Positions 36,216 to 60,695 of a stretch of 64,000 nucleotides of DNA are shown piece by piece. The notes beneath the pieces were generated by a model. The model searched no databases and was not told the origin of the DNA. It saw nothing but the letters and a program-made list of their open reading frames with translations. Each line of letters begins with the position of its first letter. Position 1 is the first letter of the stretch. Position numbers and translations under genes: made by a program. The DNA lies in assembly GCF_030384885.1 (NCBI RefSeq), contig NZ_CP128613.1; one strand, written 5' to 3'. This DNA is from Escherichia coli. GTDB lineage: Bacteria; Pseudomonadota; Gammaproteobacteria; Enterobacterales; Enterobacteriaceae.

Positions 36216-39011
36216 ATGGAGATAATTATGAGAAACCTCTGTTTCTTACTGACGTTAATGGCAACTCTGTTGCTCCCCGGGCGACTGATTGCCGCCGCCT
36301 TACCGCAGGATGAAAAGTTAATTACCGGGCAACTGGACAATGGCTTGCGATATATGATTTATCCGCATGCTCAACCTAAGGATCAGGTAAATTTATGGCT
36401 GCAAATTCATACCGGTTCATTGCAGGAAGAAGACAATGAGCGCGGCGTGGCTCATTTTGTAGAACATATGATGTTTAACGGCACAAAAACATGGCCGGGT
36501 AATAAAGTCATCGAAACATTTGAGTCAATGGGCCTGCGTTTTGGTCGCGATGTTAATGCCTATACCAGCTATGACGAAACGGTGTATCAGGTGAGTTTGC
36601 CGACTACGCAGAAACAAAATCTGCAACAAGTGATGGCAATCTTCAGTGAATGGAGTAATGCCGCAACCTTTGAAAAACTCGAAGTAGACGCTGAACGTGG
36701 CGTAATTACTGAGGAATGGCGTGCCCATCAGGATGCGAAATGGCGCACCTCTCAGGCGCGCCGCCCTTTCCTGCTGGCAAATACCCGTAATTTAGAGCGT
36801 GAACCTATCGGCCTGATGGATACTGTCGCCACGGTCACACCGGCACAATTGCGCCAATTTTATCAACGCTGGTATCAACCAAATAATATGACCTTTATCG
36901 TGGTCGGCGATATTGACAGTAAAGAAGCGCTGGCGCTGATTAAGGATAATTTAAGTAAGCTTCCGGCTAACAAAGCAGCTGAAAATCGCGTCTGGCCGAC
37001 AAAAGCCGAAAACCACCTGCGCTTTAATATCATTAATGATAAAGAAAACCGGGTGAACGGCATCGCACTCTATTATCGCCTGCCAATGGTGCAAGTGAGC
37101 GATGAGCAAAGCTTTATCGAACAAGCTGAATGGAGCATGTTGGTTCAGCTGTTCAATCAGCGTCTGCAGGAACGCATACAGTCGGGCGAGTTGAAGACTA
37201 TTTCTGGCGGCACTGCGCGCAGCGTTAGAATTGCACCCGATTATCAGTCGCTGTTTTTCCGTGTAAATGCACGAGACGATAATATGCAGGATGCTGCGAA
37301 TGCATTAATGGCAGAGTTGGCAACTATTGATCAGCATGGTTTTTCTGCTGAAGAACTCGATGATGTCAAATCTACCCGTCTCACCTGGCTGAAAAATGCG
37401 GTTGATCAGCAAGCTGAACGTGATTTACGTATGCTGACCAGTCGCCTGGCATCCAGCTCATTAAATAATACGCCGTTCTTGTCGCCGGAAGAGACATATC
37501 AACTTTCGAAACGTCTGTGGCAGCAAATTACCGTGCAAAGTCTGGCGGAAAAATGGCAGCAGCTAAGAAAGAACCAGGACGCATTTTGGGAGCAAATGGT
37601 GAATAACGAGGTTGCAGCCAACAAAGCATTATCTCCTGCGGCTATCCTGGCGCTGGAAAAAGAGTACGCCAACAAAAAGCTGGCAGCTTACATCTTCCCT
37701 GGCAGAAATTTATCGTTAACAGTAGACGCTGACCCACAGGCGGAAATTAGCAGTAAAGAAACACTGGCTGAGAATCTGACATCATTAACACTTTCTAATG
37801 GTGCCAGGGTTATTCTGGCAAAATCAGCGGGTGAAGAGCAAAAGCTACAAATTATTGCCGTATCTAATAAAGGTGATTTAAGTTTCCCTGCGCAGCAAAA
37901 ATCACTTATCGCGCTGGCAAATAAAGCGGTGAGTGGCAGCGGCGTTGGTGATCTCTCCTCTTCCAGCCTGAAACGCTGGAGTGCGGAAAACTCGGTAACC
38001 ATGAGCAGCAAAGTCAGTGGGCTGAATACGTTGCTCTCCGTGAGCGCGCGGGCTAATAATCCTGAACCTGGTTTCCAGTTGATTAACCAGCGAATCACTC
38101 ACAGCACGATTAATGACAATATTTGGGCATCGCTACAAAATGCTCAAATTCAGGCGTTGAAAACGCTAGACCAACGTCCAGCAGAGAAATTCGCCCAGCA
38201 GATGTATGAGAAGCGCTATGCTGATGATCGTACGAAATTACTGCAAGAAAAACAGATTGCACAATTTACTGCCGCAGACGCGCTGGCAGCCGATCGCCAG
38301 TTATTTTCATCTCCAGCGGATATCACGTTTGTCGTTGTCGGTAATGTCGCAGAAGACAAACTTCTGCCGTTAATTACGCGTTACTTAGGATCAATAAAAC
38401 ACTCTGATTCGCCATTAGCCGCAGGTAAACCATTAACTCGCGCGACGGACAACGCATCGATTACTGTAGAAGAACAAAATGAACCTGTGGCACAGGTTTC
38501 ACTGTGGAATCGTTATGATTCCCGGACACCTATTAATCTGGCGACACGTATGGCGCTGGATGCCTTTAACGTTGCCCTGGCTAAAGATCTGCGCATTAAT
38601 ATTCGTGAACAGGCATCTGGGGCATACAGCGTTTCTTCTCGCCTCTCGGTTGATCCTCAGGCCAAAGATATCACCCATTTGCTGGCTTTTACTTGTCAAC
38701 CAGAACGGCATGAAGAACTGTTAGCGTTAGCGAATGAAGTGATGGTTAAGCGTCTGGCTAAAGGGATCAGTAAGCAAGAACTGAACGAATACCAGCAAAA
38801 CGTTCAGCGCAGCCTCGATATCCAACAGCGTAGCGTTCAACAATTAGCGAACACCATTGTAAATAGTCTTATTCAATATGACGATCCTGCCACATGGACT
38901 GCGCAGGAGCAATTATTGAAACAAATGACGGTAGATAATGTTAACACTACGGTTAAACAATATCTTTCTCATCCGGTGAATACCTTTACCGGAGTATTAC
39001 TACCAAAATAA
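36216..39011 (+). CDS. pqqL: Periplasmic M16-family zinc peptidase PqqL
   Basis: 931 aa; HxxEH inverted zinc motif (HFVEHMMFNGT). Confidence 0.9.
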   Translation: MEIIMRNLCFLLTLMATLLLPGRLIAAALPQDEKLITGQLDNGLRYMIYPHAQPKDQVNLWLQIHTGSLQEEDNERGVAHFVEHMMFNGTKTWPGNKVIETFESMGLRFGRDVNAYTSYDETVYQVSLPTTQKQNLQQVMAIFSEWSNAATFEKLEVDAERGVITEEWRAHQDAKWRTSQARRPFLLANTRNLEREPIGLMDTVATVTPAQLRQFYQRWYQPNNMTFIVVGDIDSKEALALIKDNLSKLPANKAAENRVWPTKAENHLRFNIINDKENRVNGIALYYRLPMVQVSDEQSFIEQAEWSMLVQLFNQRLQERIQSGELKTISGGTARSVRIAPDYQSLFFRVNARDDNMQDAANALMAELATIDQHGFSAEELDDVKSTRLTWLKNAVDQQAERDLRMLTSRLASSSLNNTPFLSPEETYQLSKRLWQQITVQSLAEKWQQLRKNQDAFWEQMVNNEVAANKALSPAAILALEKEYANKKLAAYIFPGRNLSLTVDADPQAEISSKETLAENLTSLTLSNGARVILAKSAGEEQKLQIIAVSNKGDLSFPAQQKSLIALANKAVSGSGVGDLSSSSLKRWSAENSVTMSSKVSGLNTLLSVSARANNPEPGFQLINQRITHSTINDNIWASLQNAQIQALKTLDQRPAEKFAQQMYEKRYADDRTKLLQEKQIAQFTAADALAADRQLFSSPADITFVVVGNVAEDKLLPLITRYLGSIKHSDSPLAAGKPLTRATDNASITVEEQNEPVAQVSLWNRYDSRTPINLATRMALDAFNVALAKDLRINIREQASGAYSVSSRLSVDPQAKDITHLLAFTCQPERHEELLALANEVMVKRLAKGISKQELNEYQQNVQRSLDIQQRSVQQLANTIVNSLIQYDDPATWTAQEQLLKQMTVDNVNTTVKQYLSHPVNTFTGVLLPK

Positions 39012-39015
39012 TGAC

Positions 39016-39049
39016 GTCCCCCGTCAACATATCGTTGGCGGGGGTTTTA
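39016..39049 (+). terminator. Rho-independent terminator after pqqL
   Basis: GTCCCCCGTCAAC...GTTGGCGGGGG followed by TTTT. Confidence 0.7.
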
Positions 39050-39272
39050 GCAACAGACGTTATTTTATATAATAATTTTATGAATGCGTTCAAAATAACA
39101 ACCGAGTACTAATAATGATATTTTAAGGGCTAATTTTTATGTGATAATTCACCAGAGTTAGAAAGCGCGTCAAAATAATGACATACAACACCACACTACA
39201 ACCCATTACACCCTACACTATTGTTTTTTAACGTAAATATATTTTTCCCATAATATCTCACGATAAATAACA

Positions 39273-39292
39273 TTAGGATTTTGTTATTTAAA
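39273..39292 (+). promoter_or_regulatory. GAD box (GadE/GadX/GadW binding site) of the gadBC promoter
   Basis: Exact match to recalled 20-bp GAD box TTAGGATTTTGTTATTTAAA, about 80 bp upstream of gadB ATG. Confidence 0.85.
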
Positions 39293-39371
39293 CACAAGTC
39301 CTTTGCACTTGCTTACTTTATCGATAAATCCTACTTTTTTAATGCGATCCAATCATTTTAAGGAGTTTAAA

Positions 39372-40772
39372 ATGGATAAGAAGCAAGTAACGGATTTAAG
39401 GTCGGAATTACTCGATTCACGTTTTGGTGCGAAGTCTATTTCCACTATTGCAGAATCAAAACGATTTCCGCTGCACGAAATGCGCGATGATGTCGCATTC
39501 CAGATTATCAATGATGAGTTATATCTTGATGGCAACGCTCGTCAGAATCTGGCAACGTTCTGCCAGACCTGGGACGACGAAAATGTTCACAAGTTGATGG
39601 ATTTATCTATTAACAAAAACTGGATCGACAAAGAAGAATATCCGCAATCTGCAGCTATCGACCTGCGTTGCGTAAATATGGTTGCTGACTTGTGGCATGC
39701 GCCTGCGCCGAAAAATGGTCAGGCCGTTGGCACCAACACCATTGGCTCTTCCGAGGCCTGTATGCTCGGCGGGATGGCGATGAAATGGCGTTGGCGCAAG
39801 CGTATGGAAGCCGCAGGCAAGCCAACGGATAAACCTAATCTGGTGTGCGGCCCGGTACAAATCTGCTGGCATAAATTCGCCCGTTACTGGGATGTGGAGC
39901 TGCGTGAAATCCCTATGCGCCCCGGTCAGTTGTTTATGGACCCGAAACGCATGATTGAAGCCTGCGACGAAAACACTATCGGCGTGGTGCCGACTTTTGG
40001 CGTGACCTACACCGGTAACTATGAGTTCCCGCAACCGCTGCACGATGCGCTGGATAAATTCCAGGTCGACACCGGTATCGACATCGACATGCACATCGAC
40101 GCCGCCAGCGGTGGCTTCCTGGCACCGTTCGTCGCCCCGGATATCGTCTGGGACTTCCGCCTGCCGCGTGTGAAATCGATCAGTGCTTCAGGCCATAAAT
40201 TCGGTCTGGCTCCGCTGGGCTGCGGCTGGGTTATCTGGCGTGATGAAGAAGCGCTGCCGCAGGAACTGGTGTTCAACGTTGACTACCTCGGCGGTCAGAT
40301 TGGGACTTTCGCCATCAACTTTTCCCGCCCGGCGGGTCAGGTGATTGCACAATACTATGAATTCCTGCGCCTCGGTCGTGAAGGCTATACCAAAGTACAG
40401 AACGCTTCCTACCAGGTTGCCGCTTATCTGGCGGATGAAATCGCCAAACTGGGGCCGTATGAGTTCATCTGTACCGGTCGCCCGGACGAAGGCATCCCGG
40501 CGGTTTGCTTCAAACTGAAAGATGGTGAAGATCCGGGATACACCCTCTACGACCTCTCTGAACGTCTGCGCCTGCGCGGCTGGCAGGTTCCGGCCTTCAC
40601 TCTCGGCGGTGAAGCGACCGACATCGTGGTGATGCGCATTATGTGTCGTCGCGGCTTCGAAATGGACTTTGCTGAACTGTTGCTGGAAGACTACAAAGCC
40701 TCCCTGAAATATCTCAGCGATCACCCGAAACTGCAGGGTATTGCCCAGCAGAACAGCTTTAAACATACCTGA
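39372..40772 (+). CDS. gadB: Glutamate decarboxylase beta
   Basis: 466 aa from ATG 39372 ([21 protein letters not shown]...); matches recalled GadB throughout; AGGAG RBS. Confidence 0.95.
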
Positions 40773-40927: not shown

Positions 40928-42463
40928 ATGGCTACATCAGTACAGACAGGTAAAGCTAAACAGCTCACATTACTCGGATTCTTTGCCATAACGGCGTCGA
41001 TGGTAATGGCTGTTTATGAATACCCTACCTTCGCAACATCGGGCTTTTCATTAGTCTTCTTCCTGCTTTTAGGCGGGATTTTATGGTTTATTCCCGTGGG
41101 GCTTTGTGCTGCGGAAATGGCCACCGTCGACGGCTGGGAAGAAGGTGGTGTCTTCGCCTGGGTATCAAATACTCTGGGGCCGAGATGGGGGTTTGCAGCG
41201 ATCTCATTTGGCTATCTGCAAATCGCCATCGGTTTTATTCCAATGCTCTATTTCGTGTTAGGGGCACTCTCCTACATTTTGAAATGGCCAGCGTTGAATG
41301 AAGACCCCATTACCAAAACTATTGCAGCACTCATCATTCTTTGGGCGCTGGCATTAACACAGTTTGGTGGCACGAAATACACGGCGCGAATTGCTAAAGT
41401 TGGCTTCTTCGCCGGTATCCTGTTACCTGCATTTATTTTGATCGCATTAGCGGCTATTTATCTGCACTCCGGTGCTCCCGTTGCTATCGAAATGGATGCG
41501 AAAACCTTCTTCCCTGATTTCTCTAAAGTCGGCACCCTGGTTGTGTTTGTTGCCTTCATTTTGAGTTATATGGGGGTAGAAGCTTCCGCAACCCACGTCA
41601 ATGAAATGCGCAACCCCGGTCGCGATTATCCGCTGGCGATGTTACTGCTGATGGTGGCGGCAATCTGCTTAAGCTCTGTTGGCGGCTTGTCTATTGCGAT
41701 GGTTATTCCGGGTAATGAAATCAACCTCTCAGCAGGGGTAATGCAAACCTTTACCGTTCTGATGTCACATGTGGCACCGGAAATTGAGTGGACGGTTCGC
41801 GTGATCTCCGCACTGCTGTTGCTGGGTGTTCTGGCGGAAATCGCTTCCTGGATTGTTGGCCCTTCTCGCGGGATGTATGTCACCGCGCAGAAAAACCTGC
41901 TGCCAGCGGCGTTCGCTAAAATGAACAAAAATGGCGTACCGGTAACGCTGGTTATTTCGCAGCTGGTGATTACTACTATCGCGTTGATCATCCTCACCAA
42001 TACTGGTGGCGGTAACAATATGTCCTTCCTGATCGCCCTGGCGCTGACGGTGGTGATTTATCTGTGTGCTTATTTCATGCTGTTTATTGGCTACATTGTG
42101 TTGGTTCTTAAACATCCTGACTTAAAACGCACATTTAATATCCCTGGTGGTAAAGGGGTGAAACTGGTCGTGGCAATTGTCGGTCTGCTGACTTCAATTA
42201 TGGCGTTTATTGTTTCCTTCCTGCCGCCGGATAACATCCAGGGTGACTCTACCGATATGTATGTTGAATTACTGGTCGTTAGTTTCCTGGTGGTACTTGC
42301 CCTGCCCTTTATTCTCTATGCTGTTCATGATCGTAAAGGCAAAGCGAATACCGGCGTATCTCTGGAACCAATCAACAGCCAGAACGCACCGAAAGGTCAC
42401 TTCTTCCTGCACCCGCGTGCACGTTCACCACACCATATTGTGATGAATGACAAGAAACACTAA
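40928..42463 (+). CDS. gadC: Glutamate:GABA antiporter
   Basis: 511 aa, [32 protein letters not shown]...; matches recalled GadC. Confidence 0.95.
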
Positions 42464-54305: not shown

Positions 54306-54342
54306 AGACGCGGCATCCGGCTATTGCATGTCTGTGGAAACG

Positions 54343-55233
54343 TTATGCGTCATAGGTTTTTTTTAACGTTTCCATCAACGCTTGCGCCGCAGTAGAAAGC
54401 TTATGGTGTGACGAACGCAGAACGCCTACCCGTCGCTCAATCACCGGATTATCCAGTTCCAGACACACTGCGCCCAATTCGCTCATCTGCCTGCGGCACA
54501 GTGCAGGCACAGCGCTGCCCCCCAAACCGTTTGCCACCAGCCGCCCAACCGTAACCAGTTGATGGCTTTCCAGCGCCACTTCCAGTTGCGTTCCACTTTG
54601 TGCCAATTCCTCTTCCAGCATCAACCTGACGGCTGACGGTCGCTGGAGGGTGATAAAATCGAGCGTCAGCAAATCCCGCCAGCTCACGCGTTGCCGATTT
54701 GCCAGTCGGGAATCGGCTGGAACAATAGCAACAAACCGATCCACGCCCAGCGGGATAAAATGCAAATGGCCGCAATAGTCAGGTTCAAAGGCAATCCCCA
54801 TCTCCACGCGCCCTTCACTCACCATTTCGATTACCAGCTCATTCACCACATCGTGCACAGTGACGTTAATCCCTGAATAACAATCGCGGAAGGTTTTCAG
54901 CACCGGAGGCAAAACGTTGGCCGCAAATGACGGCATCGCTGCCACTGAGACTTTGCCCCGCCTGAGCGTGAATCGCTGACGCATGGCCTCTTCGGTGTTA
55001 TCCCAGTCAGCCAGCAAAGGCCGTGCCATCGACAATAGCGTTTCCCCCTCCTGGGTTAACGTCACTTTTCGCGTAGTACGCAGCAGTAAAGCGCCCCCTA
55101 AGGCATCTTCCAGTCCTTTAATGGCAAGACTTAGCGCAGGCTGCGACATATTCAGCCGTTCACTGGCATGGGCAAAGTTCAGAGTGTGAGCTACCGCTAA
55201 AAACGCGCGTAACTGTTTGATGCTCATTTTCAT
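54343..55233 (-). CDS. LysR-family transcriptional regulator (296 aa), divergent from CoA-transferase operon
   Basis: N-terminal LysR HTH (MSQPALSLAIKGLEDALGG); occupies the position where osmC is expected. Confidence 0.85.
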   Translation of the reverse strand: MKMSIKQLRAFLAVAHTLNFAHASERLNMSQPALSLAIKGLEDALGGALLLRTTRKVTLTQEGETLLSMARPLLADWDNTEEAMRQRFTLRRGKVSVAAMPSFAANVLPPVLKTFRDCYSGINVTVHDVVNELVIEMVSEGRVEMGIAFEPDYCGHLHFIPLGVDRFVAIVPADSRLANRQRVSWRDLLTLDFITLQRPSAVRLMLEEELAQSGTQLEVALESHQLVTVGRLVANGLGGSAVPALCRRQMSELGAVCLELDNPVIERRVGVLRSSHHKLSTAAQALMETLKKTYDA

Positions 55234-55374
55234 CTGGTATTCCGTTAACTTGTTGAATACATTTAATTAACATTATATTTATAAATAATACAAATGAATG
55301 AGTCACAAATTTAAAATTAACAAATCATTTTTTGCCCTTAATGATGTTGGAAAGGACAACTGGAGGGCAACTGT

Positions 55375-56082
55375 ATGGCTGGGCTGGATAAACGGGTCGC
55401 TACGTATCACGAGGCGCTTGAAGGACTTACCAATGAGATGACGATTCTGGCGGGAGGTTTTGGCCTGTGCGGCATCCCGGAGAATCTGATTGCTGAAGTT
55501 CGCCACCGTGGAGTAACCGCATTGACGGTGGTTTCCAATAACTGTGGCGTAGACGGTTTTGGACTGGGTGTACTGCTGGAAACCCGACAGATCCGTAAAG
55601 TCATCGCTTCTTATGTTGGCGAAAATGCTTTGTTTGAAAAACAGGTGCTTAACGGCGAACTGGAGGCGATTCTCACACCACAAGGAACCCTGGCAGAACA
55701 ACTGCGCGCAGGCGGCGCGGGCATCCCGGCGTTCTTTACTGCCACCGGTTACGGTACACCCGTTGCCGAAGGGAAAGAAGTCCGCGAATTCAACGGTCGC
55801 CCGTACATAATGGAACAGGCTATCACCGGTGATTTTGCCCTGGTCAAAGGCTGGAAAGCCGACTGGTACGGCAACGTGATTTATCGTCATACCGCGCAAA
55901 ACTTCAACCCACTGATGGCGGCTGCCGGAAAAATCACCGTGGTGGAAGTGGAAGAGATTGTGCCGCCTGGTGAACTTGATCCTGCCGCAATCCATACCCC
56001 AGGGATTTTTGTTAATCGCGTCATTCAGGGGCAATTTGAAAAACGCATTGAACAACGCACCCTTAGCCGCAAAGGAGCCTGA
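55375..56082 (+). CDS. 3-oxoacid (acetoacetate/succinyl-CoA) CoA-transferase subunit A
   Basis: 235 aa; strongly ScoA/OXCT-like ([47 protein letters not shown]). Confidence 0.85.
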
Positions 56083-56084
56083 CC

Positions 56085-56741
56085 ATGTTAACCCGTGAAC
56101 AAATGGCGATGCGAGTCGCCCGCGAATTGCGCGATGGCTATTACGTCAATCTCGGCATTGGTATCCCGACCCTGGTGGCAAACTACATTCCTGACGGGAT
56201 GGATGTGATGTTGCAGTCAGAAAACGGTTTGCTGGGAATGGGCGCATTTCCTACGGAAGATGAACTGGACGCCGACATGATTAACGCCGGTAAACAAACC
56301 GTTACCGCACGGAAAGGCGCGGCAATTTTCGATTCGGCGCAATCTTTCGCCATGATCCGTGGCGGCCATGTGGATCTGACTGTGCTTGGCGCATTTGAAG
56401 TGGATGTGAATGGCAACATTGCCTCATGGATGATCCCCGGCAAGATGGTTAAAGGCATGGGCGGTGCCATGGATCTGGTTGCCGGTGCCGAGAATATTAT
56501 TGTGGTAATGACCCACGCCTCCAAATCCGGCGAATCCAAACTGCTTCCCGACTGTACCCTGCCATTGACTGGCGTCGGCTGCATCAAACGCGTCTTAACC
56601 GACCTTGCTCTGCTGGAAATTGCTGACGGCGCTTTCATTCTGCGCGAGCGCGCGCCGGGAATCAGCGTTGCGGAAATCGTCGCCAAAACCGCCGGTAAGT
56701 TGTTTGTGCCGGAACATGTCCCGGAAATGCAATTCAACTGA
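56085..56741 (+). CDS. 3-oxoacid CoA-transferase subunit B
   Basis: 218 aa; adjacent and co-oriented with subunit A. Confidence 0.85.
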   Translation: MLTREQMAMRVARELRDGYYVNLGIGIPTLVANYIPDGMDVMLQSENGLLGMGAFPTEDELDADMINAGKQTVTARKGAAIFDSAQSFAMIRGGHVDLTVLGAFEVDVNGNIASWMIPGKMVKGMGGAMDLVAGAENIIVVMTHASKSGESKLLPDCTLPLTGVGCIKRVLTDLALLEIADGAFILRERAPGISVAEIVAKTAGKLFVPEHVPEMQFN

Positions 56742-56750
56742 GGAATCACC

Positions 56751-57956
56751 ATGCAGGACGTTGTTATTGTTGCCGCTACGCGCACGCCGATTGGCTGTTT
56801 TCATGGCGCTCTCGCACCACTTTCTGCGGTTGATCTCGGCGCTGCCACCATCCGTTCATTGCTGGAGAAAACCGCACTTGCAGCAGAACAGATCGATGAA
56901 GTGATTTTTGGTCAGGTCCTGACTGCCGGAAGCGGACAAAACCCAGCACGGCAATCGGCGCTCAAAGCCGGGTTAAGCCACGATACACCCGCCGTTACCA
57001 TCAACCTGGTATGTGGTTCCGGTTTGAAAGCCGTACACCAGGCCGTGCAGGCGATCCGCTGTGGTGATGCACAGATCATTATCGCAGGTGGCCAGGAAAG
57101 CATGAGCAACGCGCCCTATTTTATTGATGGCGCGCGGGCAGGTTTACGCCTCGGGCATACCAGCATGAAAGACAGCGTGGTTCATGACGGACTATGGGAT
57201 GCTTTCAATGATTACCACATGGGCATTACTGCAGAAAACCTGGCGCAAAAATATGCCATCAGTCGCGAGCGCCAGGACACATTCGCGCTACGTTCTCAGC
57301 AAAAAGCCGCTGCCGCAATGGAAGCCTGGCGCTTTGCAGACGAAATTACTCCGGTCAGCGTACCACAAGGTAAAAAACCACCACGCTGGGTAAATACCGA
57401 CGAACAACCACGTTCCGGGACGCAACTGGAAAAACTGGCGCAACTGAAACCGGCCTTTCTTCCGGGGGCAGGAAGCGTCACCGCGGGAAATGCCTCTTCC
57501 ATCAATGATGGTGCCGCCGCAGTCATGTTAATGCGCGCCAGCAAAGCTGCCGAACTTGGCCTCTCTGTGCTGGCTCGGGTGGCCGGTTATGCCGTTTCTG
57601 GCGTCGATCCTGCCTTTATGGGCATCGGTCCGGTCGTCGCTACCCGCGAATGTCTTAAGCGTTGCGGATGGACGCTGGAAGATATTGATCTTATTGAAGC
57701 AAACGAAGCTTTCGCAGCGCAGGCGCTGGCCGTTGGCGACGAACTGAACTGGGATAACGACAAAGTGAATGTTAACGGCGGCGCAATCGCACTTGGGCAT
57801 CCTATTGGCGCTTCTGGTTGCCGCATTCTGGTCACTCTCATTTATGAAATGGCGCGACGTAATGCGCAAAAAGGGCTGGCGACGCTGTGCGTCGGTGGCG
57901 GTCAGGGCGTGGCGCTGACGCTGGAAAGAACCACAGGAGAACACCATGCAAACTGA
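56751..57956 (+). CDS. Acetyl-CoA C-acetyltransferase (thiolase)
   Basis: 401 aa; AtoB-like along full length ([24 protein letters not shown]). Confidence 0.85.
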
Positions 57957-58869
57957 ACAATTTGCGGTACTGGGCGCCGGATTGATGGGCGTGGGGATTG
58001 CCACTCATTTCGCCCGCTTTGGTCATGATATCTGGCTGTACGATACCGAGCAGAGCCGGATTGCTGAAATCCCCGTAGTTGCAGCCGGGATTCTTGATGA
58101 ACTGATTAGCTGCGAACAGTTTACTGCCTCGGGAAAAGAGAATGTGCTTAAACGCCTTCACGGCACGACCTCTCTTGCTGACATCGCCGACTCGCAACTA
58201 CTGATTGAGGCGATCCCGGAGCGGCTTGAACTAAAACACGCATTATATGCCGAGCTTGAAACACTTATTTCTCCTGAGGCCATTGTCGCCAGCAATACCA
58301 GCGGTCTGCCGCCCGATGATCTGGCAGCGAAGATGCGCTACCCGCAACGACTGCTGATCGCCCATTTCTGGCATCCGCCGCACTTCATTCCACTTGTAGA
58401 GATTGTCCCCGGCAGCGTTACCGAGCCAAAGCATTTGCACTGGCTGCAACACTTGCTTGTGTCACTGCAACTGGAAGCTGTGTTGCTGGATCGCGCTGCG
58501 CCAGGATTTGTCGGCAACCGTCTGCAATTTGCACTGTTGCGTGAAGCCCTGCATATCGTAAAAAGCGGCATCGCCAGTGCCGAAGTAGTCGATCAGGTCA
58601 TGCGCGCCTCGCTTGGGCGACGTTATGCCATGGTCGGCCCGCTGGAGGCCGCCGACATGACCGGACTTTCGACGGTGCAGGATATTTGTCGCCATCTTCT
58701 CCCTGAACTGGCGACTGGCAGCGACATGATGTCGTTAGTTGCCGAAAAAGTGGAACGTGGAGACATCGGCGTACGTAGCGGTCAGGGATTTTACCGCTGG
58801 GATGAATCGCGGAAGCAGTACATCCAGCAGCGTCGGGAACATCAGCTTCGCTTCGCCCTGAAACCCTAA
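57946..58869 (+). CDS. 3-hydroxyacyl/3-hydroxybutyryl-CoA dehydrogenase
   Basis: 307 aa; N-terminal Rossmann GxGxxG ([12 protein letters not shown]); overlaps thiolase stop by 11 nt. Confidence 0.8.
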
Positions 58870-58914
58870 CTTCTCTCGCTGTACCCACTATAACAACGAT
58901 ATTGAGGAGTCCCG

Positions 58915-60306
58915 ATGAGTGTATTAATCGCCCTTGCCGCGCTTGGGCTGCTAATGCTGGCAGCCTATCGCGGATACAGCGTTATCCTTTTTGCCCCCAT
59001 CGCGGCATTAGGCGCTGTTCTTGTCACCGATCCGGGGGCTGTTGGCCCAGCATTTACCGGTCTGTTCATGGAAAAAATGGTCGGCTTCGTGAAATTGTAC
59101 TTCCCGGTGTTTCTGCTCGGGGCCGTGTTCGGAAAACTGATTGAGCTTTCAGGATTTTCTCGTTCGATTGTCGCTGCTGCAATCAACATTCTCGGGCGGC
59201 GGCATGCGATTCCGGTGATTGTGCTGGTATGCGCATTACTCACCTATGGCGGCGTGTCGCTGTTTGTGGTGGCATTTGCCGTTTATCCGTTCGCGGCTGA
59301 ATTGTTCCGACAGAGTAATATCCCCAAACGGCTTATACCGGCAACGGTGGCCCTCGGAGCATTCTCTTTTACTATGGACGCTCTGCCCGGCACACCTCAA
59401 ATCCAGAACATTATTCCCACCAGTTTCTTTGGCACCAACGCCTGGGCCGCGCCGTGGCTGGGGCTCATTGGTTCACTGTTTATCATTGCCGTCGGGCTTA
59501 TCTATCTGGAGCGACAGCGTCGTAAAGCGCATGCAAAAAATGAAGGTTACGGCACAGAGTTACTTAATGAACCTGAAACGCCAGACAACATCAATTTGCC
59601 GAATCCACTCATTGCGATTTCACCGTTGATTCTGGTGGGGCTGTTGAACTTGTTGTTTACCTGGTGGATCCCTGTTTGGTACGGTGCGAGTCACCAACTG
59701 GAGTTGCCAGGACTTGCCGCCCCGATCACTACAGATGTCGCCAAAATCACCGCTATCTGGGCCGTTGAAGCAGCGCTCATTGCCGGAATTTTGCTGGTGG
59801 TGATTTTCGGATATCGCAATATTCATGGAAGACTGGCAGAAGGAAGCCGTACTGCGGTGGGTGGCGCAATTCTGGCCGCGATGAACACCGCCTCAGAATA
59901 TGGCTTCGGTGCGGTTATCGCCGCTCTGCCCGGTTTTCTGGTGCTCTCAAAGGCGCTGGCTGCCATTCCAGATCCATTACTCAACGAAGCCATCAGCATC
60001 ACCACGCTTGCCGGCATTACCGGTTCAGCGTCCGGCGGGATGAGTATTGCTCTTGCGGCTATGTCCGACACTTTTATTGCCGCTGCGCACGCTGCCAATA
60101 TTCCACTGGAAGTTTTTCACCGCGTGGCATCTATGGCCAGTGGCGGCATGGATACATTGCCCCATAACGGCGCAGTGATCACTCTGCTGGCAATTACTGG
60201 GCTGAGTCACCGTCAGGCTTACGGCGGTATCTTCGCAATTACGATCATTAAAAGTCTGGCCGTGCTGTTTATCATCGGCGTGTACTACACCACCGGCATT
60301 GTCTAA
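58915..60306 (+). CDS. Polytopic permease (GntP-like family; candidate 3-hydroxybutyrate / short-chain acid transporter)
   Basis: 463 aa, highly hydrophobic with central hydrophilic loop; family assignment by resemblance only. Confidence 0.6.
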   Translation: MSVLIALAALGLLMLAAYRGYSVILFAPIAALGAVLVTDPGAVGPAFTGLFMEKMVGFVKLYFPVFLLGAVFGKLIELSGFSRSIVAAAINILGRRHAIPVIVLVCALLTYGGVSLFVVAFAVYPFAAELFRQSNIPKRLIPATVALGAFSFTMDALPGTPQIQNIIPTSFFGTNAWAAPWLGLIGSLFIIAVGLIYLERQRRKAHAKNEGYGTELLNEPETPDNINLPNPLIAISPLILVGLLNLLFTWWIPVWYGASHQLELPGLAAPITTDVAKITAIWAVEAALIAGILLVVIFGYRNIHGRLAEGSRTAVGGAILAAMNTASEYGFGAVIAALPGFLVLSKALAAIPDPLLNEAISITTLAGITGSASGGMSIALAAMSDTFIAAAHAANIPLEVFHRVASMASGGMDTLPHNGAVITLLAITGLSHRQAYGGIFAITIIKSLAVLFIIGVYYTTGIV

Positions 60307-60317
60307 GGAGAATCATC

Positions 60318-60695
60318 ATGAATTTACAAGGTAAAACTGCGCTTGTGACGGGGTCCTCCAGCGGTATTGGACTCGGTATTGCTCAGACACTGGCAAAAGC
60401 CGGCGCGCAAGTGATCCTCAACGGCTTCGGTGATGTTGACGCGGCAATCAATGGAGTTTCTCGTGTGGGTAAAACGCCTGGCTATCATGAGGCAGACCTC
60501 AGCGATGAATCGCAAATTGTCAGCATGATGGCCTACGCACGGAGGGAATTTGGCGGTGTGGACATTCTGGTGAATAACGCCGGGATCCAATTGGAGCTGA
60601 CCAAATGGGTGGAAGCTTCTGATAACGACATCCTCAGTGATATCTACCAGCAAACGATCAATTATGTGGTCAGTGGCCAGCACCCTACGCTTTAA
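60318..60695 (+). pseudogene. Chimeric ORF: truncated SDR (3-hydroxybutyrate-dehydrogenase-like N-terminus, about 95 aa) fused in frame to apparent 3' end of bdm
   Basis: N-terminus GKTALVTGSSSGIGLGIA...DILVNNAGIQ is SDR-like but stops at about 95 aa (full SDR about 250 aa); the last 34 aa are not SDR-like and lie directly upstream of sra where bdm is expected. Confidence 0.6.

Follow-up and report, generated by a model that had tools for sequence, protein, structure and literature searches.

The gadBC promoter and its GAD box

The window (the whole 64-kb stretch of DNA that was analysed) carries the glutamate decarboxylase gene gadB followed by the antiporter gene gadC, both intact and both on the plus strand. 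Upstream of them lies pqqL, the stop codon of which ends at position 39011; the spacer separating it from the gadB ATG at 39372 is 360 bp long and holds the GAD box, a 20-mer (TTAGGATTTTGTTATTTAAA) read on the plus strand. The parts of the promoter and the operon are as follows:

39273–39292, + strand: GAD box of the gadBC promoter, a 20-bp site for activation by GadE/RcsB; exact and unique match, identical to the published site
39309–39314, + strand: predicted −35 hexamer, TTGCTT; 16 bp past the box, the spacing given for gadA in PMC2887963
39322–39331, + strand: RcsB box core CGATAAATCC, an RcsB repression site of predicted extent; adjoins the −10 hexamer and is identical to K-12
39332–39337, + strand: predicted −10 hexamer, TACTTT; 17-bp spacer from TTGCTT, 7–8 bp before the putative start, invariant in the 11-promoter alignment
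39345–39346, + strand: gadBC transcription start, placed by homology; 26–27 nt leader
39360–39365, + strand: Shine–Dalgarno sequence of gadB, AAGGAG, read from the sequence; invariant in 11 of 11 promoters
39372–40772, + strand: gadB, intact, encoding a glutamate decarboxylase of 466 aa; a near-identical genome has it annotated as gadB
40928–42463, + strand: gadC, glutamate/GABA antiporter, 511 aa, intact; annotation of the near-identical genome

The 20-mer occurred only once in the window, irrespective of strand, and even when up to three mismatches were allowed; in dinucleotide-preserving shuffles, the mean number of matches per window at the same tolerance was 0.01. It corresponds letter for letter to the published GadE site TTAGGAttTTgTTATTTAAa (PMC4918353) and is identical, at 20 of 20 positions, to the boxes of both gadB and gadA of Escherichia coli K-12. 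The box is oriented as gadB is, and from its first base to the gadB ATG the distance is 99 bp, the same as in K-12 gadB and K-12 gadA. The published map describes a 20-bp GAD box that has its centre 63 bp ahead of the transcription starts of gadA and gadBC and that precedes the −35 hexamer by 16 bp (PMC2887963). The centre of the box in the window (39282.5) fell −62.5 to −63.5 from the start placed at 39345/39346, and its end is separated by 16 bp from TTGCTT, in agreement with that map. The initial annotation had claimed an exact match to the published GAD box in the expected position and had proposed a comparison with published gadA/gadB promoter maps; when this comparison was run, the sequence and both spacings agreed (PMC4918353, PMC2887963).

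The transcription start was placed by homology. The primer names gadB-173 and gadB+77 (PMC3050690), when mapped onto K-12, set +1 26–27 nt before the ATG; because window and K-12 do not differ between 39298 and the ATG, and because the spacing of box and ATG is 99 bp in each, we infer the start at 39345/39346. A scan with the sigma-70 consensus did not call the gadB promoter. The TTGCTT/TACTTT pair is too weak for the thresholds of that scan, which is expected of an activator- and RpoS-dependent promoter, and the promoter was thus also placed by homology. When 11 Escherichia gadA/gadB promoters were aligned, the CTTGC at the 5′ edge of TTGCTT was invariant. As an exact match to the box was the criterion by which these 11 sequences had been chosen, the box itself is invariant in this alignment by construction; the information lies in its constant spacing and in the divergence of its flanks. 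The 17-bp spacer between TTGCTT and TACTTT contains the RcsB box core; this element lies directly upstream of the −10 hexamer and is conserved in gadB apart from its leftmost base, where a C replaces the G (PMC2887963). In the window, the core starts with C, which is the gadB form. Scanning the whole window against Rfam yielded no match, and the GAD box is thus not linked to any known RNA element.

Both proteins encoded downstream are close to those of K-12. GadB differs from its K-12 counterpart by one substitution (V at position 232 for A in K-12) and GadC by five, and neither reading frame is interrupted by an internal stop. The N-terminus of the decarboxylase, MDKKQV, identifies the gene as the gadB paralogue, gadA beginning with MDQKLL.

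Regulators of the box

In K-12, the GAD box is bound by a heterodimer of GadE and RcsB, GadE alone giving no protection; on gadA, the two proteins together leave a footprint from −50 to −76, and a G-to-C mutation of the box (M1) abolishes both binding and GadE-dependent activation (PMC2887963). At high concentration, RcsB alone binds a second box beside the −10 hexamer, which results in repression (PMC2887963). A ChIP-exo table for K-12 lists GadE peaks centred at −62.5 for gadBC and at −64 for gadA, and deletion of gadE at pH 5.5 is recorded in K-12 with log2 values of −6.4 for gadB and −5.9 for gadC. Positions 39273–39292 are therefore read here, with high confidence, as what is very probably the GAD box known from textbooks, here in the gadBC promoter, bound by GadE/RcsB and activating, with binding and activation carried over from the K-12 experiments. 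The motif for GadE derived from ChIP-exo (TTARGAWWWWAAATA) had no match anywhere in the window at up to one mismatch, the GAD box included; as it misses this box, the motif describes the canonical site poorly.

On this basis, the promoter would operate as follows. GadE would be made in stationary phase or under mild acid, via the EvgA–YdeO and the GadX/W cascades, and the GadE/RcsB heterodimer would bind the 20-bp site centred at −63. Once bound, it would activate RNA polymerase, largely in its RpoS form, at the weak TTGCTT/TACTTT promoter, from which gadB and gadC would be co-transcribed. GadB would then consume one proton for each glutamate decarboxylated and GadC would exchange GABA for glutamate, with high RcsB activity leading to repression through the second box beside the −10 hexamer.

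The 20-mer might instead be, primarily, a direct site for the AraC-family regulators GadX and GadW. A passage in PMC6128205, citing older in-vitro work, has GadX and GadW compete for binding at or around the gad box, and fragments of the gadA and gadB promoters spanning −173 to +77 were shifted by GadX (PMC3050690). However, the GadX/W motif (AKGKCTGWTWTTWWYMYVAK) is a different sequence, which did not match positions 39273–39292 at up to three mismatches; its sole match in the spacer lies ∼150 bp upstream of the box:

39126–39145, + strand: GadX/GadW-type motif, separate from the GAD box; ∼−220 to −201, AKGKCTGWTWTTWWYMYVAK with two mismatches

In addition, the GadX peaks found by ChIP-exo at K-12 gadBC are located at −184, −225 and +66, none of them at −63, and a table presumed to be that of the gadX deletion gives only −0.6 (log2) for gadB, compared with the −6.4 in the table for the gadE deletion. 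A primary role of GadX/GadW at the 20-mer is therefore considered very unlikely, and the box is taken to be the GadE/RcsB site. The putative GadX/W-type motif at 39126–39145, in turn, owes its assignment to its orthologous position, the K-12 GadX ChIP-exo peak being centred at −225; matches to AKGKCTGWTWTTWWYMYVAK in the window (3, with 4.6 expected) were not above chance. The K-12 orthologue of the site has one mismatch to the motif. Within the CTGAT core, a G-to-A exchange at 39132 distinguishes the window (AGGGCTAATTTTTATGTGAT) from K-12 (AGGTCTGATTTTTACGTGAT).

The description of the box in the initial annotation as GadE/GadX-dependent consequently held for GadE, but not for GadX, given that it is the GadE/RcsB heterodimer that binds and that the K-12 GadX peaks lie elsewhere; the attribution should read GadE/RcsB. 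The further statement that the acid-resistance regulon is intact cannot be concluded from a cis site and should be dropped. Of the regulon, the window has only gadB, gadC, ydeP, safA and ydeO intact, the latter three (24935–28495), which are parts of the EvgA–YdeO–GadE cascade, residing ∼11 kb upstream of gadB; the loci of gadE, gadA, gadX, gadW and rcsB are outside the 64 kb. The related genome of E. coli 2013C-4282 contains a complete acid fitness island, with GadE and GadA protein accessions identical to those of K-12; its gadA is likewise preceded by this GAD box, at a distance of 99 bp.

As a GAD box before gadBC was already known, the finding is correct but ordinary, and its designation as a routine confirmation was apt. 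The GAD box of E. coli K-12 gadBC reportedly goes back to Castanie-Cornet and Foster (in 2001). The value of the present result is mainly one of annotation, in that the gadBC promoter is now correctly marked.

Constraint and distribution

The spacer upstream of gadB did not diverge evenly from that of K-12. Its proximal 127 bp (39245–39371), comprising the box and the core promoter, contained three differences (97.6% identity), whereas the distal part (39012–39244) contained 51 differences in 237 aligned columns. Three differences in 127 positions have a binomial probability of P = 3e-10 at the distal rate, and of P = 8e-4 at the rate of third codon positions in gadB, 10.1% of which are different. 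Determined per 100 bp, identity to K-12 was 79–84% between 39000 and 39299, 100% between 39300 and 39399, and 93–99% inside gadB. The 127-bp core was at least 95% identical in 5395 of the 5406 matching E. coli records. The difference between core (97.6%) and distal spacer (∼79% identity) points to selection on the segment containing the box and the core promoter, and indicates that this segment is under purifying selection relative to the neighbouring non-coding DNA. On a small scale, the locus thereby illustrates the sharp line that selection draws between a drifting spacer and the 20-bp activator site with its core promoter.

Identity of the box could also stem solely from gene conversion between gadA and gadB, or from recent recombination with mainstream E. 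coli, the box being non-functional in this lineage. Conversion as such is plausible because gadA and gadB of K-12 are 97.8% identical at the DNA level, and the core promoter is indeed far nearer to K-12 than its surroundings are. A conversion tract would, however, bring the flanks along, whereas identity between the gadA and gadB promoters is confined to a sharp 20-bp island, the immediate flanks of which are unrelated on both sides. Furthermore, the gadB coding sequence just downstream is, at 93–99% per 100 bp, not uniformly identical to K-12, and the distance from the box to the start codon is fixed in E. albertii, E. whittamii and Escherichia sp. E1V33. The 20-bp island between diverged flanks thus speaks for selection acting on the box and against a gene-conversion tract, the latter explanation (like that by recombination) being highly improbable.

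The distal spacer, ∼79% identical to its K-12 counterpart, corresponds to the region that carries the GadX peaks at −184 and −225 in K-12. It is conceivable, albeit rather unlikely, that the distal control region of gadBC has drifted while the box and core promoter remained frozen, and that direct input from GadX/GadW has perhaps become weaker or been rewired, in which case the operon would depend only on GadE/RcsB.

In a scan of 100,044 species genomes (one genome each, 298 Gb), the exact 20-mer was encountered at 11 places. Eight of these are in Escherichia: two genomes labelled E. coli and Escherichia sp. E1V33 contributed two copies each, E. albertii and E. whittamii one copy each. At all eight Escherichia loci, the 20-mer was located 99–100 bp before a start codon of the gadA or gadB type. 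The remaining three were in metagenome bins of Lentisphaeria and Bacteroidales, within coding-like sequence and without gad context, a number that chance could account for, given an A+T-rich 20-mer and 298 Gb of sequence. That such chance hits exist at this scale raises the question whether the box, too, is an A+T-rich sequence that happens to match within an A+T-rich intergenic region. With only 0.01 matches expected per window even at up to three mismatches, and with the box being positionally orthologous to that of K-12 and directly upstream of gadB, the probability of this explanation is practically negligible; the chance-match reading was rejected, as it is refuted by position and orthology. 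What is shown directly here is the identity of the box in sequence, its position, the genes around it and its evolutionary constraint.

Two E. coli genomes matched the gadB promoter of the window only in part. In AR_0085 (1501–1589), the first homologous position of the window is 39284, which lies within the GAD box, and a truncated sulfatase pseudogene abuts the region of homology; in this strain, a rearrangement appears to have removed the left half of the box. Strain MSI001 matched the promoter only from window position 39300 on.

The window and its comparison with known systems

By its sequence, the window belongs to a divergent E. coli lineage: over the 33 kb between 21327 and 54311, it is 95.3% identical to K-12, that is, ∼4.7% diverged. 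An identity of more than 90% over the pqqL–gadB junction was found in only ∼13 of 5431 matching E. coli records. The closest complete genome is that of E. coli 2013C-4282 (99.8% identical over the 43 kb from 17144 to 60591, and 100% over 601 bp), the content of which differs from that of the window in positions 1–11260. A lineage ∼5% diverged from K-12 thus has the cis element that glutamate-dependent acid resistance requires.

At its left end (1–11290), the window contains a tandem filamentous prophage of the inovirus type at the chromosomal dif site. The prophage unit is 8575 bp long, and positions 1–2701 are identical to 8576–11276. An exact dif site is present at 11263–11290, and between the prophage copies, from 2688 on, lies a hybrid dif-like site (GGTGCGCATAATGTcaacgcgttatgttgaaa). 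The following prophage genes were recognized:

562–1920 and 9137–10495: secretin
2786–3715: AbiJ-like/DUF7014 gene, on the strand opposite to the other prophage genes
4620–5714: replication protein G2P
6392–7786: attachment protein G3P
8128–9222: Zot

At least 80% of the unit was found in 46 of 5426 E. coli genomes; in a phage collection, only ∼190 bp matched, namely gene IV of phage IKe and of Erwinia PEar phages.

To the right of the prophage, an ORF with leucine-rich repeats (12992–14425, minus strand) contains ∼11 tandem 60-nt units, the repeats extending from 13111 to 13770. This region aligned with 2013C-4282 in several registers, which suggests that the two genomes differ in copy number. 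It is followed by an ankyrin-repeat ORF of 654 aa (15118–17082, plus strand), at the matching place of which the relative annotates an ankyrin protein of 460 aa. A fimbrial operon at 18223–24586 comprises, according to the annotation of the relative, a fimA-like gene, a chaperone, an usher, ydeS, ydeR and ydeQ; the usher is full-length in the window, whereas K-12 retains only the truncated pseudogene ydeT.

Downstream of gadBC, a 6.3-kb cluster absent from K-12 (54312–60591) directly follows ddpF, which in K-12 is followed by osmC. In the annotation of the relative, its genes encode a LysR regulator, the CoA-transferase subunits A and B, an acetyl-CoA acetyltransferase, a 3-hydroxyacyl-CoA dehydrogenase, a GntP permease and a 3-hydroxybutyrate dehydrogenase. 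A 1.4-kb deletion relative to 2013C-4282 is located at 60591/60592; it truncates the 3-hydroxybutyrate dehydrogenase gene (ORF 60318–60695, 125 aa) and takes out osmC together with the 5′ half of bdm, homology to K-12 resuming 112 nt inside bdm.

Among known systems, gadBC of K-12 is the one to which the locus corresponds most directly: the GAD box agrees in 20 of 20 bases, in its distance to the ATG (99 bp) and in its distance to the −35 hexamer (16 bp), and the RcsB box, the −10 hexamer, the leader and the Shine–Dalgarno sequence are the same. Between 39252 and the ATG (120 bp), the only difference is an A at 39297 in place of the G in K-12. The GAD box of gadA, residing in the acid fitness island, has the same 20 bases and is equally far from its ATG; the gadA promoter differs in that the flanks of its box are unrelated on both sides and in that its RcsB box starts with G rather than C. 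Moreover, the gene at that locus is of the gadA type (MDQKLL...), whereas the one in the window is of the gadB type (MDKKQV...) and is followed by gadC. The sites of GadX and GadW (42-bp boxes, or the ChIP-exo motif AKGKCTGWTWTTWWYMYVAK) belong to the same regulatory region and regulon as the GAD box but differ from it in sequence and in location, lying at ∼−184 to −225 at gadBC.
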